DNA of 64,000 nucleotides from a virus. Positions 12,545-54,939 of the stretch are shown here, in pieces; the first letter of the stretch is position 1; each line of letters starts with the position of its first letter. The position numbers were made by a program, and so were the translations under genes. The stretch lies in the IMG/VR virus record IMGVR_UViG_3300007345_000033, one strand, 5' to 3'. The notes under the pieces were generated by a model, which saw only the letters and a list, made by a program, of their open reading frames with translations, ran no database searches and had not been told where the DNA came from.

Positions 12545-12913
12545 ATGAACAGTGGTAAATATAAAATTGGAATTGATTATGACTTCTACAAAGAAAGTAT
12601 CTACAAAGTAGAATTTAACGATTTTTTATCTGAACATCATCCAGATAGTCTATTGGAAACCGATGGTTATCAATTGTTCGAGATTCATACCGGTGAATAT
12701 GCCGGTCTTATTTTTGGCGTTAAAAACCTAGAAGTTATTGAGGTCGAAGGTCAGGCCGATGATATGGTAACTTTTGAGTATGATACAATCATTCCTCATA
12801 ACCCATATCCTGGTATAGATACTGGACCTATTGTGGAAGAATATTTGAAGCATTTTGTTTTGAATACTCTTGAAAATGAAGCGAATAGAATGAAAGATTT
12901 AATGCAGGATTAG
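12545..12913 (+). CDS. hypothetical protein
   Basis: Tracked ORF 12485..12913 overlaps tRNA-His. The likely real start is the internal Met (MNSGKYK) after the tRNA. Confidence 0.4.
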   Translation: MNSGKYKIGIDYDFYKESIYKVEFNDFLSEHHPDSLLETDGYQLFEIHTGEYAGLIFGVKNLEVIEVEGQADDMVTFEYDTIIPHNPYPGIDTGPIVEEYLKHFVLNTLENEANRMKDLMQD

Positions 12914-12978
12914 CTCAGGGGTAGAGCGTCTGTTTTACACGCAGAATGTCAGTGGTTCGATTCCACTATCCTGTACCA
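12904..12978 (+). tRNA. tRNA-Val (anticodon TAC)
   Basis: Acceptor gcaggat/atcctgt. D-arm gctcaggggtagagc. Loop ttTACac. CCA encoded. Confidence 0.75.
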
Positions 12979-12982
12979 AATT

Positions 12983-13058
12983 GCTAAGATAGCTCAGTTG
13001 GTAGAGCACCTGATTAAAGATCAGGGTGTCGGAGGTTCGATTCCTCCTTTTAGCACCA
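12983..13058 (+). tRNA. tRNA with anticodon loop ttAAAga (formally Phe-AAA; unusual A34)
   Basis: Canonical cloverleaf: acceptor gctaaga/ttttagc, D gctcagttggtagagc, AC stem cctga/tcagg, T ggaggttcgattcctcc, CCA. Positions 34-36 read AAA. Confidence 0.5.
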
Positions 13059-13181
13059 TATTAAAGGAGTCGGGGCAGGATGGTAATGCAGCGGATTGAA
13101 ATTTCATTTGTATAAATAGTAATGTAGGTCACGATGTTGGCGCATCTACCTACTCTAGAAATACAAAGGGAGATTTCCAGC

Positions 13182-13790
13182 ATGAAACTATTTATTTGTC
13201 AATTCTGCGGCAGGGAAACAACTAATCCTGGTGCCAATAAAAAACATGAGATTGGTTGTAGGAATAACCCAAATTCAAAAATTTGTGGCGGTAATAAAAA
13301 AGGGTATGTTCCTTGGAATACTGGAAAAGTGGGTGTACAAACTGCTTGGAATAAGGGTAAACCTGGAACATTTAGAGGTAAGAAACACACAGCAGAAACC
13401 AAAAGAAAGATGTCTGAGAGCAAAAAAGCATTATACGCTACTGGATGGGAGTGTATCGCTGGAAGATGTCCAAAATATGATTATGAGTCCCCTATTGCCG
13501 GAAAGATAAAGGTAGATGGTAGTTGGGAATTGGCATTTTGTGAATTTGCTGATAAAATGCAATTAAACTGGGAAAGAAATAAAAAACGTTTTCCGTACAC
13601 TAAACCAGATGGAACTAAATCTACGTATCAACCAGATTTCTATGTAAAAGAATTAAAGTCTTATATTGAAGTCAAAGGATATGAAACAGATTTAGATAAG
13701 GCTAAATGGGAACATTTTCCCGAAAATCTGATAGTGCTTCGAAAGAAAGAAATCGGTGGGTTGGATGAGTGGTTTGCTAAACCGTCATAG
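13182..13790 (+). CDS. homing-endonuclease-like protein: NUMOD3 motifs + gp4-like PD-(D/E)XK nuclease domain
   Basis: N-terminal Cys pairs (CQFCG...CRNNP) and NUMOD3-like GKKHTAETKRKMSESKK. C-terminus YQPDFYV...YIEVKG (PD...ExK) aligns with ORF 54493..54939. RBS agggag before the Met at 13182. Confidence 0.55.
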   Translation: MKLFICQFCGRETTNPGANKKHEIGCRNNPNSKICGGNKKGYVPWNTGKVGVQTAWNKGKPGTFRGKKHTAETKRKMSESKKALYATGWECIAGRCPKYDYESPIAGKIKVDGSWELAFCEFADKMQLNWERNKKRFPYTKPDGTKSTYQPDFYVKELKSYIEVKGYETDLDKAKWEHFPENLIVLRKKEIGGLDEWFAKPS

Positions 13791-13806
13791 GATTAAAAGT
13801 TCTATC

Positions 13807-13834
13807 GAGGGTTCGAATCCCTCACTCACCGCCA
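13807..13834 (+). other. tRNA 3'-half fragment (T-arm + acceptor 3' strand + CCA)
   Basis: gagggttcgaatccctc + actcacc + g + cca. The upstream partner ggatgagt forms an acceptor only with a bulge. The inferred anticodon loop would be 9 nt. Confidence 0.4.
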
Positions 13835-13841
13835 AGGTTCA

Positions 13842-13869
13842 CTGGGTTCGACTCCCAGCGGCTCCGCCA
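13842..13869 (+). other. tRNA 3'-half fragment (T-arm + acceptor 3' strand + CCA)
   Basis: ctgggttcgactcccag + cggctcc + g + cca, with no adjacent 5' half. A perfectly complementary ggagtcg lies at 13066..13072 upstream of the HEG-like gene. Confidence 0.4.
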
Positions 13870-13874
13870 AAATT

Positions 13875-13968
13875 GGATGATTAACCAGAGCGGCCTCTGG
13901 ACCTGTCTTGAAAACAGTGTGGTCGGGTTAGAAGCCCGATTGGGGATCGACACCTCAATCATCCGCCA
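13875..13968 (+). tRNA. type II tRNA with selC-like architecture, anticodon loop ctTGAaa (Ser-TGA by anticodon)
   Basis: 8-bp acceptor ggatgatt/aatcatcc. 6-bp D-stem with 4-nt loop (ccagag cggc ctctgg). Long variable hairpin cgggttagaagcccg. T-arm tggggatcgacacctca. G73 + CCA. Confidence 0.45.
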
Positions 13969-14056
13969 ACTTCTAAAATAGGAAAATAGATAATGGAAAC
14001 TGGAGATATAATTCTTGTTTTAATTTTAACATCGGCTATTTTCTATATTATGTTTT

Positions 14057-14131
14057 GGAGCACAGGCTGACTGAGTAGGCGGTGGATTGCAAATCCACAT
14101 TAGGTAGGTTTGATTCCTACGTGTTCCTCCA
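14057..14131 (+). tRNA. tRNA-Cys (anticodon GCA)
   Basis: Acceptor ggagcac/gtgttcc. AC stem gtgga/tccac with loop ttGCAaa. T-arm gtaggtttgattcctac. CCA encoded. Confidence 0.6.
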
Positions 14132-14144
14132 ACATAAAAAACGC

Positions 14145-14173
14145 TTGACTTCGCTTTTGATATAAACTATAAT
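14145..14173 (+). promoter_or_regulatory. sigma70-like early promoter (-35 TTGACT)
   Basis: ttgact 14145..14150. 17-bp spacer. tataat 14168..14173. Leader gtataaattgataagga. Confidence 0.6.
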
Positions 14174-14201
14174 ATGAGTATAAATTGATAAGGAGTGATA
14201 A

Positions 14202-14479: not shown

Positions 14480-14552
14480 GACTGTACAAGTGGTCTTGAC
14501 AGTGGTTTCATAAGCCACCAGGGATAGTTCGATTCTATCTACAGTCACCAAA
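14480..14552 (+). tRNA. tRNA-Met/Ile2 (anticodon CAT)
   Basis: Acceptor gactgta/tacagtc. AC stem gtggt/gccac with loop ttCATaa. CCA encoded. Confidence 0.6.
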
Positions 14553-14558
14553 TTATGG

Positions 14559-14633
14559 ACCTGTAGCTCAGTTGGACAGAGCGTGTGGCTACGAACCACA
14601 AGGTCGAGGGTTCGAATCCTTCCAGGTTCACCA
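14559..14633 (+). tRNA. tRNA-Arg (anticodon ACG)
   Basis: Acceptor ggacctg/caggttc. D-arm gctcagttggacagagc. Loop ctACGaa. T-arm gagggttcgaatccttc. CCA encoded. Confidence 0.75.
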
Positions 14634-14692
14634 AATAAAATCAGATACATAGAGTGTCTGTATAAGTAAAATACTAAAGGAGTTTTAGTAAG

Positions 14693-20922: not shown

Positions 20923-21013
20923 AGTCCCTTAGTTTAATGGTAAAACACCCGTCTTATAAGCGGCACCGTCTCCAGATTAGAGAGCGATATGGGTTCGAAT
21001 CCCATAGGGACTA
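20923..21013 (+). tRNA. type II tRNA-like gene, anticodon loop ctTATaa (assignment unclear; TAT or shifted TTA), no encoded CCA
   Basis: Acceptor agtccct/agggact. D gttt/aaac. 4-bp AC stem. About 21-nt variable arm. T atgggttcgaatcccat. Confidence 0.4.
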
Positions 21014-21117
21014 CAAAACAATTAAAAGCGACAGATCGTAACCCAGGTCGCCTACCAAAATACGAAAGAGAAAAATGCATATAACTTGAAATGATTTGTC
21101 AATATAAATAAAGTTGA

Positions 21118-43994: not shown

Positions 43995-44385
43995 AAAAAA
44001 CAGTTGATAACTTATAAAAATTCCTTTACTTCTAAACTAAAATTAAATATACTATATAAATAATAAGCGGATTTGATTATCAGATTCTAAAAGTTATTCA
44101 GGACACGGGGGCAGTTCCCGTCGTCTCCACCAGAAGAGTATTGGTTATCAGGGTTGGAATAAACCTGGTGTAATAGATTTTCCAAACGTCCAGTACTCTT
44201 TTGATGGGGACGATTCAGGTTCGACTGGTAATAAGTAAGTTCTCTGTAGAATACGCTATTTAAAAATAAATGCTAACGATAACTTCAAAGCATTTGATTA
44301 CGCCTTAGCTGCGTAATCATTGGGCGGCCACTGCCTCGAAACAGAAGTGTGGCATTATTTCCTAAAATTTTATGAAAGGTTTAAC

Positions 44386-44754
44386 ATGAAAACATTTTTG
44401 ATTGCAACTACTGCATTGGTAGTTTCAACAACAGCAGCCTTGGCTGGTGGAATGCAACCAGGCGTTTGGTCTGGTGAGGCTTTTGCAGAATATGGGGTAA
44501 ATGCCCAAGATGTAACACTTGGAGGCGGTGTTGCTTATGATATCAACTCAGTTAGCTTGTGGACTGAAACTGAACTTCAAGTAGCTCAAGAAGTTGATTT
44601 GACTTTGAGTGATGTTACCTTTGGTGCAGATTATGCAATTCTACCTCAAGTAGATGCGTATATGGCATTTGAGTTTGCTGGTAATCCAGATGCAGCTAAT
44701 GGTCTTGGGGTTGAATATAATGAAACTTCAATTGGCCTTCGCTACGAGTGGTAA
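44386..44754 (+). CDS. secreted small beta-barrel outer-membrane-like protein
   Basis: Signal peptide MKTFLIATTALVVSTTAALA. Alternating hydrophobic pattern. C-terminal ...GLRYEW (terminal aromatic, typical of OM beta-barrels). Terminator ggggagcttcggctcccc at 44762..44779. Confidence 0.45.
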   Translation: MKTFLIATTALVVSTTAALAGGMQPGVWSGEAFAEYGVNAQDVTLGGGVAYDINSVSLWTETELQVAQEVDLTLSDVTFGADYAILPQVDAYMAFEFAGNPDAANGLGVEYNETSIGLRYEW

Positions 44755-54492: not shown

Positions 54493-54939
54493 TTATAATA
54501 TACCTAATTCTTTTTCTGTGAAAATCTTAAAGCTCCAACCACGATCATTACAATACTGTTCGGCGGCTTCCCATTTTGCTTGATTCACTCCCCAATTTTT
54601 AACTTCGGTCAAATAACTTTTTGTTATTTTTGCTTTCTTTTTTGGCTCGGTTGTAAATTTTAATGGCTTCACTTCAATCAATATGGTTTCCTTCATTCCT
54701 TTACTATTTATTTTAGATACTATGAAGTCTGGAAAATAACGATGTATTTTATTGTCAATTGGAGAGCGATATGGAATAGATAGTTCTTCCGACGCCCAAG
54801 TAATTATTTCCTTTCTATTGTCTAAATACAACATTAATTTAAGCTCATATCCAGAACGATAAACAATATTTGTTGGATCTCCTTTGTATTTTTCTGGATA
54901 TTTCGGTTTAAAAAAACCTTGAGTGTATTTTTTCGACAT
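54493..54939 (-). CDS. PD-(D/E)XK nuclease-fold protein (gp4 head-completion-like by position)
   Basis: YFPDFIV...LIEVKP...QAKWEAAEQY motif. 148 aa. Divergently transcribed from the baseplate genes, as T4 gene 4 is. Homologous to the C-terminal domain of ORF 13182..13790. Confidence 0.45.
   Translation of the reverse strand: MSKKYTQGFFKPKYPEKYKGDPTNIVYRSGYELKLMLYLDNRKEIITWASEELSIPYRSPIDNKIHRYFPDFIVSKINSKGMKETILIEVKPLKFTTEPKKKAKITKSYLTEVKNWGVNQAKWEAAEQYCNDRGWSFKIFTEKELGIL

Follow-up and report, generated by a model that had tools for sequence, protein, structure and literature searches.

The subject of this analysis is a 64,000-nucleotide stretch of viral DNA (IMG/VR record IMGVR_UViG_3300007345_000033; hereafter the window), which derives from an uncultured myovirus-like phage with T4-like baseplate and head genes, NAD-salvage genes and a tmRNA. 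We consider it likely that the region 13066-13869 (~800 bp), situated in a cluster of 23 tRNA genes (11.5-22.5 kb), is a mobile module: a free-standing PD-(D/E)XK homing endonuclease gene (HEG) cassette in the anticodon loop of a resident tRNA-Ser(GCU) gene, carrying a replacement allele of that gene. The cassette between the two remnants of the resident gene measures ~735 bp and comprises a structured leader, the endonuclease open reading frame (ORF) and a second, sequence-divergent tRNA-Ser(GCU). The features are as follows.

13066-13098, plus strand: 5' remnant (33 nt) of the resident ('A-type') tRNA-Ser(GCU), recognised by a 24-nt identity to intact genes.
13098-13177, plus strand: cassette leader, predicted to form a nested hairpin (minimum free energy (MFE) fold and RNAalifold).
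13111-13118, plus strand: TATAAATA box with the T4 late-promoter consensus, within the 5' strand of the leader hairpin.
13182-13790, plus strand: free-standing homing-endonuclease-like ORF of 202 aa, assigned from PHROG and profile matches and invariant residues.
13755-13834, plus strand: carried ('B-type') tRNA-Ser(GCU), Rfam tRNA model 36.3 bits (gathering score 29).
13835-13869, plus strand: 3' remnant of the resident A-type tRNA-Ser(GCU), matching the family from the variable arm onward.

A first-pass annotation of this DNA had remarked that the 7-mer at 13066-13072 is complementary to a downstream acceptor strand, and had raised homing scars as one explanation. Direct reading bears this out: GGAGTCG (13066-13072) pairs with CGGCTCC (13859-13865) at 7/7 positions with one G-U pair, and the 7-mer begins a full 33-nt tRNA 5' half. 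This half consists of the acceptor strand GGAGTCG, the D-arm GCA-GGATGGTAA-TGC and the 5' strand of the anticodon stem, GCGGA, followed by UU(G), and it is broken within the anticodon loop after U33/G34, the junction position being ambiguous by 1 nt. A 5'-half hidden Markov model (HMM) scores it at 10.1 bits against a control maximum of 2.5, while ARAGORN made no tRNA call at 13066-13098 in either default or intron/-ps90 runs. The 3' remnant comprises the 3' strand of the variable arm (AGGTTCA), the T-arm CTGGG-TTCGACT-CCCAG, the acceptor CGGCTCC, G and CCA. Judged by sequence, 13066-13098 and 13835-13869 are the two ends of one tRNA-Ser(GCU) gene, split by an insertion.

The 24-mer GGCAGGATGGTAATGCAGCGGATT of the 5' remnant has exact matches in 87 IMG/VR stretches, nearly all of them intact tRNA-Ser(GCU) genes of the form GGAGAGT-GG-GCA-GGATGGTAA-TGC-A-GCGGA-TTGCTAA-TCCGT-[variable arm]-CAGGG-TTCGACT-CCCTG-ACTCTCC-R-CCA. 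The window copy tracks this family through GCGGATTG (position 34) and departs from it exactly thereafter. Phe(GAA) and Ser(UGA) were considered as identities for the 5' half and dropped on this family comparison, which gives a Ser(GCU) gene broken at position 34. Aligned with intact relatives, the resident gene lacks ~20 nt, from position ~35 to the variable loop (the remainder of the anticodon loop, the 3' strand of the anticodon stem and the 5' variable arm), and has ~735 nt inserted.

Chance resemblance, or plain duplication of tRNA ends from the cluster, is so improbable an origin of these pieces that it can practically be set aside. T-arm and CCA motifs are common in a cluster of 23 tRNAs, but the 5' and 3' fragments are each unique within the window at up to 3 mismatches, with 0 expected, and neither duplicates another tRNA of the cluster; the 5' half is identical at 24/24 positions to a widespread tRNA family, the acceptor strands pair at 7/7 positions, and the pattern is repeated in other phages with a permutation control (below). 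The exact 3'-fragment pattern gave a single match across IMG/VR, which was unrelated.

Three states of a single locus can be seen among related stretches (L-numbers are our labels for fetched relative stretches or contigs). The tRNA-Ser(GCU) gene is intact in L241, L188, L238 and L180, which have an upstream protein gene in common (75-90% aa identity) with L233 and L256. L233, one of the 87 stretches, is occupied: the tRNA breaks at the same nucleotide and a homologous ORF follows. L256 carries a scar, in which the same break is followed by just 22 nt of the ORF 3' end and then a complete tRNA-Ser(GCU), the nuclease having been deleted; L258 and L248 have the same arrangement. Similarity between L241 and L233 ends at tRNA nt 33, and the tRNA-Arg(TCT) and tRNA-Leu(TAA) genes downstream are shared. 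These relatives display a presence/absence polymorphism of the HEG, with an intact target where the HEG is lacking.

The window itself shares 76-79% nucleotide similarity with its closest relatives only from 13064/13072 to 13834, the flanks being unrelated. The similarity extends to 13869 for L359, which likewise has a 3' remnant, and it stops ahead of the next gene, a tRNA-Ser(UGA) at 13875-13967. The module is discrete and sporadic and its flanks are unrelated, as is typical of HEGs. Megablast of 12900-14150 against 50,697 phage records gave zero matches and no close relative, and distant blastn searches against the phage records gave nothing beyond generic tRNA similarity.

The first-pass annotation had also suggested a functional split tRNA. 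An intron, of group I or another kind, that carries an endonuclease ORF would then interrupt the tRNA gene, and the halves would be spliced into a working tRNA. The position of the break matches this proposal: group I introns of bacterial tRNA genes classically lie at nt 33/34, in the anticodon loop, and such an intron is known to encode a PD-(D/E)XK homing endonuclease, I-Ssp6803I. We nevertheless regard the intron as very improbable. The pieces lack ~20 nt of tRNA, so splicing could not restore one. No Rfam intron model, that for group I introns included, scored at E≤10 in 12800-14200, and none reached its gathering score in six related loci; ARAGORN in intron mode failed to join the halves. 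Non-coding sequence in the insert comes to 83 nt besides a tRNA, too little to house a ribozyme core, and the insert has its own promoter-like box, a predicted regulated ribosome-binding site and a complete tRNA. Relatives, moreover, usually have no 3' half.

An arrangement that favours the intron is found in Acinetobacter phage Apostate (L355, NC_049491, 75448-76357), which was among the six related loci. Here a homolog of the ORF lies between two complete, mutually complementary tRNA-Met halves: the gene is cleanly split after CAT by 37 nt and the ORF, whose stop TAA supplies A37-A38 of the 3' half, and nothing is missing. At this locus we found neither a replacement 5' half nor an Rfam intron, and neither half is annotated in the record. 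The split tRNA-Met was recovered by a brute-force ARAGORN 'virtual splicing' scan, a method too noisy for statistics. Where the split is as clean as in Apostate, a phage tRNA-repair ligase, for example, might rejoin the halves, or they might be used as RNA.

The ORF at 13182-13790, described in the first pass as a homing-endonuclease-like gene in the tRNA cluster, is a real plus-strand ORF of 202 aa and the description is supported. Its product has N-terminal Cys/His pairs, a NUMOD3-like helix and a C-terminal PD-(D/E)XK nuclease domain. It matches the PHROG 'endonuclease' at E=1e-15, and a profile of 46 homologs matches T7 endonuclease I across the PD...ExK core (E=0.009). Residues P151, D152, E163 and K165 are invariant across the family, and the window ORF retains every family-invariant residue. 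Both the core fold and the D...(D/E)xK motif place the domain in the PD-(D/E)XK superfamily (TnsA / T7 endonuclease I-like); it is also akin to the Hjc resolvases. A GIY-YIG domain was sought in Pfam and PHROGs with no match. The fold and the invariant D152/E163/K165 point to a site-specific DNA endonuclease domain, and the window copy looks intact. The protein collection holds 209 homologs, some of which are named 'endodeoxyribonuclease I / Holliday junction resolvase' in database entries.

Kinship of the C-terminal domain to a gp4-like protein encoded at 54493-54939 on the minus strand, also noted in the first pass, proved real and weak (BLASTP E=7e-4 over 49 aa). The ORF matches phrog_218 (gp4-type head completion) at 4e-5 over only 62 residues, against 3e-54 for the true gp4-like gene. 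A reading of the ORF as a T4 gp4-type head completion protein was rejected, as there is no full-length similarity and the common part is the nuclease-like core alone. The gp4-like gene (PHROG 218, E=3e-54) for its part has a strong match to the Pfam TnsA-like endonuclease N-terminal domain (E=6.5e-22).

The 3' end of the ORF runs into the carried tRNA-Ser(GCU), the 5' half of which lies inside the ORF end, and the final 12 codons (the last 36 nt) are read from the tRNA gene. The corresponding C-terminal tail of the protein has low pLDDT values (64, then 43), and the C-terminal peptide of homologs, GELDEW(L/F)KSxxC followed by the stop, is a mere translation of the 5' half of the carried tRNA. 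The carried gene has the anticodon GCT at 13776-13778, a long variable arm at 13786-13806, a T-arm, the acceptor GGTGGGT/ACTCACC and an encoded CCA. An anticodon AAA, as given by the Rfam alignment, was dropped after comparison with intact homologs, which show that arm to be the variable arm and the anticodon to be GCT. Two orphan tRNA 3' halves had been reported downstream of the ORF; the one at 13842-13869 is indeed part of the split resident gene, whereas that at 13807-13834 is the end of this whole tRNA-like gene.

In the window the carried tRNA is damaged by a 13-nt deletion between GGTTT repeats near 13770-13776 (GAGTGGTTTaaatcagcGGTTTGCTAA becoming GAGTGGTTTGCTAA), which took the 3' half of the D-arm and the 5' strand of the anticodon stem. 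The 13 nt are kept in L359, L357, L358, L266 and L268, as seen in a MAFFT alignment with four homologs and in the fetched contexts, and the carried tRNA is intact in homologs with 76-82% HEG identity. The deletion shifts the ORF frame, so that the stop has moved from the anticodon-loop TAA to a TAG at 13788-13790. The Rfam score of 36.3 bits compares with 57-59 bits for the intact homologs in L266, L271 and L277; the MFE fold is not a cloverleaf and default ARAGORN makes no call. All metagenomic copies of the window phage have the deletion. The carried tRNA has probably lost its 13 nt by slippage and is probably defective, which would leave this genome with a destroyed target gene, a spare tRNA of doubtful function and an apparently intact nuclease.

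The same architecture recurs in relatives. In 8/8 homolog contexts at 60-82% identity (L266, L268, L269, L271, L233, L357, L358 and L359) we found a 5' remnant, a leader, the HEG and a complete tRNA-Ser(GCU) across the ORF end. In seven of them (all but L233) we recorded one constant order: a truncated tRNA-Ser 5' half ending in ...TT(G), a (T/C)ATAAATA box, a hairpin with a ribosome-binding site, the ORF, and a complete tRNA-Ser(GCU) called by ARAGORN that overlaps the last ~39 nt of the ORF. In most of these seven, U36-A37-A38 of the anticodon loop serves as the TAA stop.

An alignment-based scan of IMG/VR returned 187 relatives, from which 80 loci with 71 unique ORFs were taken. A same-strand tRNA starts between -50 and +15 nt from the stop in 51/71 unique ORFs, where 0.096 per locus would be expected. 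Ser-GCU accounts for 33/51 of these adjoining tRNAs, with only 38 Ser-GCU among the 305 same-strand tRNAs at the loci; a further 12 are Met-CAT and belong to a more distant subfamily, so that tRNA identity follows nuclease subfamily. At 13 loci the ORF stops on N36-A37-A38 of the anticodon loop. The 5'-half HMM places truncated halves upstream of the ORF in at least 22/71 loci, with scores higher than that of any of 142 control segments. In the Met subfamily the truncated halves come from tRNA-Met and end after U33. Across many lineages the target tRNA is broken at one and the same nucleotide.

Relatives are mostly without any 3' half, and those that have one are informative. A 3' fragment complementary to the genome's own 5' remnant follows the carried tRNA in the window and in L271, L277, L289, L290, L314, L335, L338 and L359. 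The remnant acceptors vary (GGAGTCG/CGGCTCC in the window, GGTGCGG/TCGCACC in L271, GGAACGT/ACGTTCC in L277), and a strict test for a matched 3' remnant was passed by 7/23 loci, compared with a mean of 0.45 and a maximum of 2 in 500 trials with permuted acceptors. As the acceptors differ among phages and are yet self-complementary, the remnants derive from each genome's own gene, which speaks for repeated entry of the cassette into resident genes and against scars that travel with it.

These data also bear on the possibility that the remnants are scars of ordinary recombination among tRNA genes, the nuclease being a neighbour with another role such as junction resolution or the exclusion of competitors. 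tRNA clusters are prone to recombination, and both the likeness of the catalytic domain to T7 endonuclease I and the Hjc resolvases and the resolvase name borne by some homologs fit such a role. We think this account unlikely. The ORF, leader and carried tRNA always occur together, with sharp edges at the tRNA remnants, and the common breakpoints, the match of tRNA identity to nuclease subfamily and the intact, occupied and scar states of one locus all stand against it. So does the sporadic spread over unrelated phage families, homologs being found in Ackermannviridae, Straboviridae and Aeromonas, Acinetobacter and Vibrio phages.

Two observations concern the variety of cassettes. In L233 (IMGVR_UViG_3300013006_000929) the first HEG is followed ~1.2 kb downstream by a second endonuclease homolog, which begins directly behind another truncated tRNA 5' half (GCCTATAGCTTAATGGTAAAGCGAGAAACTCTGAAAA); this small contig thus holds two cassettes, in different tRNA genes. 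In L314, L302, L318, L315 and L306, endonucleases of other clades accompany different allele types of carried tRNA-Ser(GCU). In L314 the roles are reversed, the disrupted gene being of the allele type that the window cassette carries, which suggests reciprocal allele replacement between nuclease clades.

Cultured phages provide further examples. In E. coli phage PhaxI (Kuttervirus) and Vibrio phage Kuja the endonuclease ORF overlaps a tRNA-Met by 10 nt, and in PhaxI a truncated tRNA-Met 5' half lies upstream of the ORF. In Dhakavirus IME341 the stop of the ORF coincides with the anticodon-loop TAA of a tRNA-Arg(TCT), and a truncated Arg 5' fragment lies upstream. The homologs of PhaxI, IME341 and Apostate have the accessions YP_007002815, YP_010094813 and YP_009886420. 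The published description of the Vi01-like phage PhiSH19 (PMC3220722) lists a 'Methionine tRNA (CAT) 137,703-137,735' of 33 nt, which may be a similar unrecognised remnant.

A further explanation accepts the homing endonuclease and denies the carried tRNA a rescuing role: the HEG would simply lie upstream of a resistant allele, with the overlap and the remnants incidental. Free-standing HEGs of T4 drag adjacent resistant alleles along by co-conversion (for SegB, PMC2330249); the ORF stops ahead of the tRNA in several loci (offsets 0 to +12), and in the window the cassette persists with its carried tRNA broken. On the other side, most loci keep a complete tRNA of the destroyed gene's identity, and the ORF tail is conserved as tRNA sequence only. 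We hold this version improbable as stated; it differs from a cassette that carries a replacement allele in emphasis, not in kind.

The cassette leader may govern expression of the nuclease. In the MFE fold an outer stem (13098-13105 with 13170-13177) covers part of the Shine-Dalgarno sequence GGGAG (13168-13172), and it encloses a middle stem (13107-13113 with 13161-13167) and an inner stem (13124-13129 with 13148-13153). RNAalifold on six homologous leaders gave 26 pairs, 9 of them showing compensatory changes. The (T/C)ATAAATA motif stands at the equal position in 6/6 close homologs and in many distant ones, which is consistent with a promoter, and expression of the cassette would probably be late. 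Read-through transcripts would then hide the ribosome-binding site in the leader hairpin, and transcripts begun at the TATAAATA box, past the masking strand, would leave it exposed. The arrangement resembles the late expression of I-TevI in T4, where the ribosome-binding site is masked by a hairpin and the late promoter lies inside that hairpin.

If the region is a homing cassette with a replacement allele, the target of the enzyme would be the intact A-type tRNA-Ser(GCU) gene of a co-infecting phage, cut within or close to the anticodon loop. Repair would copy the donor cassette, for which the highly conserved tRNA halves would provide short, portable stretches of homology. The carried allele has a different D-arm and anticodon stem, is presumed uncut and would replace the destroyed function. 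Such a natural 'cleave and rescue' would be the counterpart of splicing for intron-borne endonucleases.

Several points weigh against this account. We infer cleavage and homing from sequence comparison, and likewise where the cut falls, that the A allele is sensitive to it and that the B allele resists. The rescue function is probably not operating in the window genome, or not normally, the carried tRNA being damaged. No HEG-free variant of the window phage was found among 12 metagenomic contigs, all ~100% identical here; exact-protein look-ups returned only near-identical copies of the window phage, all bearing the cassette, and NatV-anchored searches of IMG/VR and metagenome contigs yielded only relatives that are at most 55% identical and non-syntenic. 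With 12 copies in the window against 10.2 expected, the TATAAATA motif shows no enrichment, so the promoter call for 13111-13118 leans wholly on positional conservation. For the NUMOD3 motif proposed in the first pass, PF07460 matches the window ORF at E=0.0023 and 18.3 bits, under the Pfam cut-off of 20.4, and a precomputed PF07460 match is present in several homologs.

The closest known system is SegB of T4, a free-standing GIY-YIG endonuclease encoded among the T4 tRNA genes, whose recognition site is the T-psi-C region and which transfers itself, along with neighbouring tRNA genes, to relatives without the HEG (PMC2330249). Both are free-standing endonuclease genes among phage tRNA genes, and tRNA-gene DNA is the target of SegB and the presumed one of the window enzyme. 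SegB, however, is a GIY-YIG enzyme that cuts at tRNA 3' ends and is encoded between intact genes, whereas the window ORF is of the PD-(D/E)XK type without a GIY-YIG domain, and here the break is in the anticodon loop, remnants flank the cassette and the ORF extends over a replacement tRNA. I-Ssp6803I, encoded in a group I intron of a cyanobacterial tRNA-fMet, has in common with the cassette the nuclease superfamily, the tRNA-gene target and the anticodon-loop insertion. It differs in being intron-encoded, with function restored by splicing; no ribozyme was detected here, and a carried second tRNA would restore function in the relatives. I-Bth0305I, whose catalytic domain is Vsr-like (PDB 3r3p), comes from an intron in a protein-coding phage gene and belongs to another sequence family, and it gave no significant sequence match to the ORF family profile.

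The T4 pairs SegF/gene 56, SegG/gene 32 and MobE/nrdB home without an intron. Intron-less homing with resistant neighbouring alleles is established for T4 (PMC2790892, PMC2988022). There too a HEG stands beside a cleavage-resistant version of its target, and gene conversion replaces the sensitive allele; the cassette differs in lying inside the target, with both ends left as scars, and in a complete duplicate that shares ~36 nt with the ORF and often provides its stop as the anticodon-loop TAA. In phage Aeh1 the nrdA gene is split by mobE. 'Fractured genes' with split inteins have likewise been described as genes split by HEG insertion (PMC2677866). An endonuclease gene between two pieces of a host gene is common to these systems and the cassette, but their pieces are functional, through split inteins or subunit assembly, and those in the window are dead remnants without ~20 nt. 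The synthetic gene-drive elements called 'Cleave and Rescue' (ClvR) link a nuclease that destroys the wild-type allele to a recoded, uncut copy that supplies the function. The cassette would follow the same logic. ClvR elements, however, are engineered, rely on Cas9 and do not insert themselves where they cut, while the present system would be natural, protein-guided and located at the cut site.

We lean, by a modest degree, towards regarding the cassette as a member of a large and apparently undescribed class: phage HEGs that invade tRNA genes at the anticodon loop and carry, instead of an intron, a cleavage-immune allele of the same tRNA lying partly inside the ORF. Within it, different nuclease clades would carry one tRNA-Ser(GCU) allele and destroy another, sister clades would use tRNA-Met, tRNA-Arg and others, and the contest between alleles would shape phage tRNA repertoires. 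No account of such an architecture was found in the literature searched, an absence that is no proof of novelty. If the class is real, it would be a third way for a HEG inside a useful gene to spare its carrier: introns and inteins mend the product, and here a spare, presumably immune, copy would serve. It would account for orphan tRNA halves and 'pseudo-tRNAs' in phage tRNA clusters and for phage tRNAs that overlap 'endonuclease' ORFs in GenBank records, and it suggests that highly conserved tRNA sequence can offer a portable landing pad to phages that are otherwise unrelated. The design is open to direct test in PhaxI, IME341, Apostate and Kuja, and the family-wide design is of more interest than the single, partly decayed copy in the window. 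A point for annotation is that the remnants, the damaged carried tRNA and the adjacent tRNA-Ser(UGA) all escape tRNA finders.

The plus-strand order over 12983-13968 is tRNA-Phe, tRNA 5' half, 83-nt leader, ORF, tRNA-like gene, tRNA 3' fragment and tRNA-Ser(UGA). The two neighbours of the cassette are as follows.

12983-13058, plus strand: tRNA-Phe, the upstream neighbour, high-scoring (70 bits).
13875-13967, plus strand: type-II tRNA-Ser(UGA), the downstream flank marker, outside the cassette.

The tRNA-Phe has the anticodon AAA (loop TTAAAGA) in place of the usual GAA, and an unmodified A34 would be unusual for Phe. The tRNA-Ser(UGA) is recognised by Rfam only through the tRNA-Sec model, at 42.8 bits and under the gathering score of 47; it was missed by default ARAGORN and recovered with -ps90, and its T-loop is an odd ATCGACA in place of TTCGAAT. 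Between the tRNA-Leu and tRNA-Arg genes a tRNA-like sequence at 14480-14552 (plus strand) has the acceptor GACTGTA/TACAGTC and an anticodon loop TTCATAA (CAT), and ARAGORN makes no call there even at -ps90. The one 99.3% variant, a metagenomic contig of the window phage (L085), is identical through the cassette and differs only beyond 14551, where it diverges sharply (14551-14640, the tRNA-Arg region); either the tRNA there is a variant or the end of the contig is an assembly chimera. At 20923-21014 (plus strand), and likewise at 3380-3471 of L271, there is a 92-nt tRNA with the anticodon TAT ('Ile') and a long, type-II-like variable arm, in two unrelated phages. The phage-encoded tmRNA lies at 44038-44407 (plus strand) and specifies the tag peptide ANDNFKAFDYALAA; a tmRNA is also present on the NatV-bearing IMG/VR contig L018.

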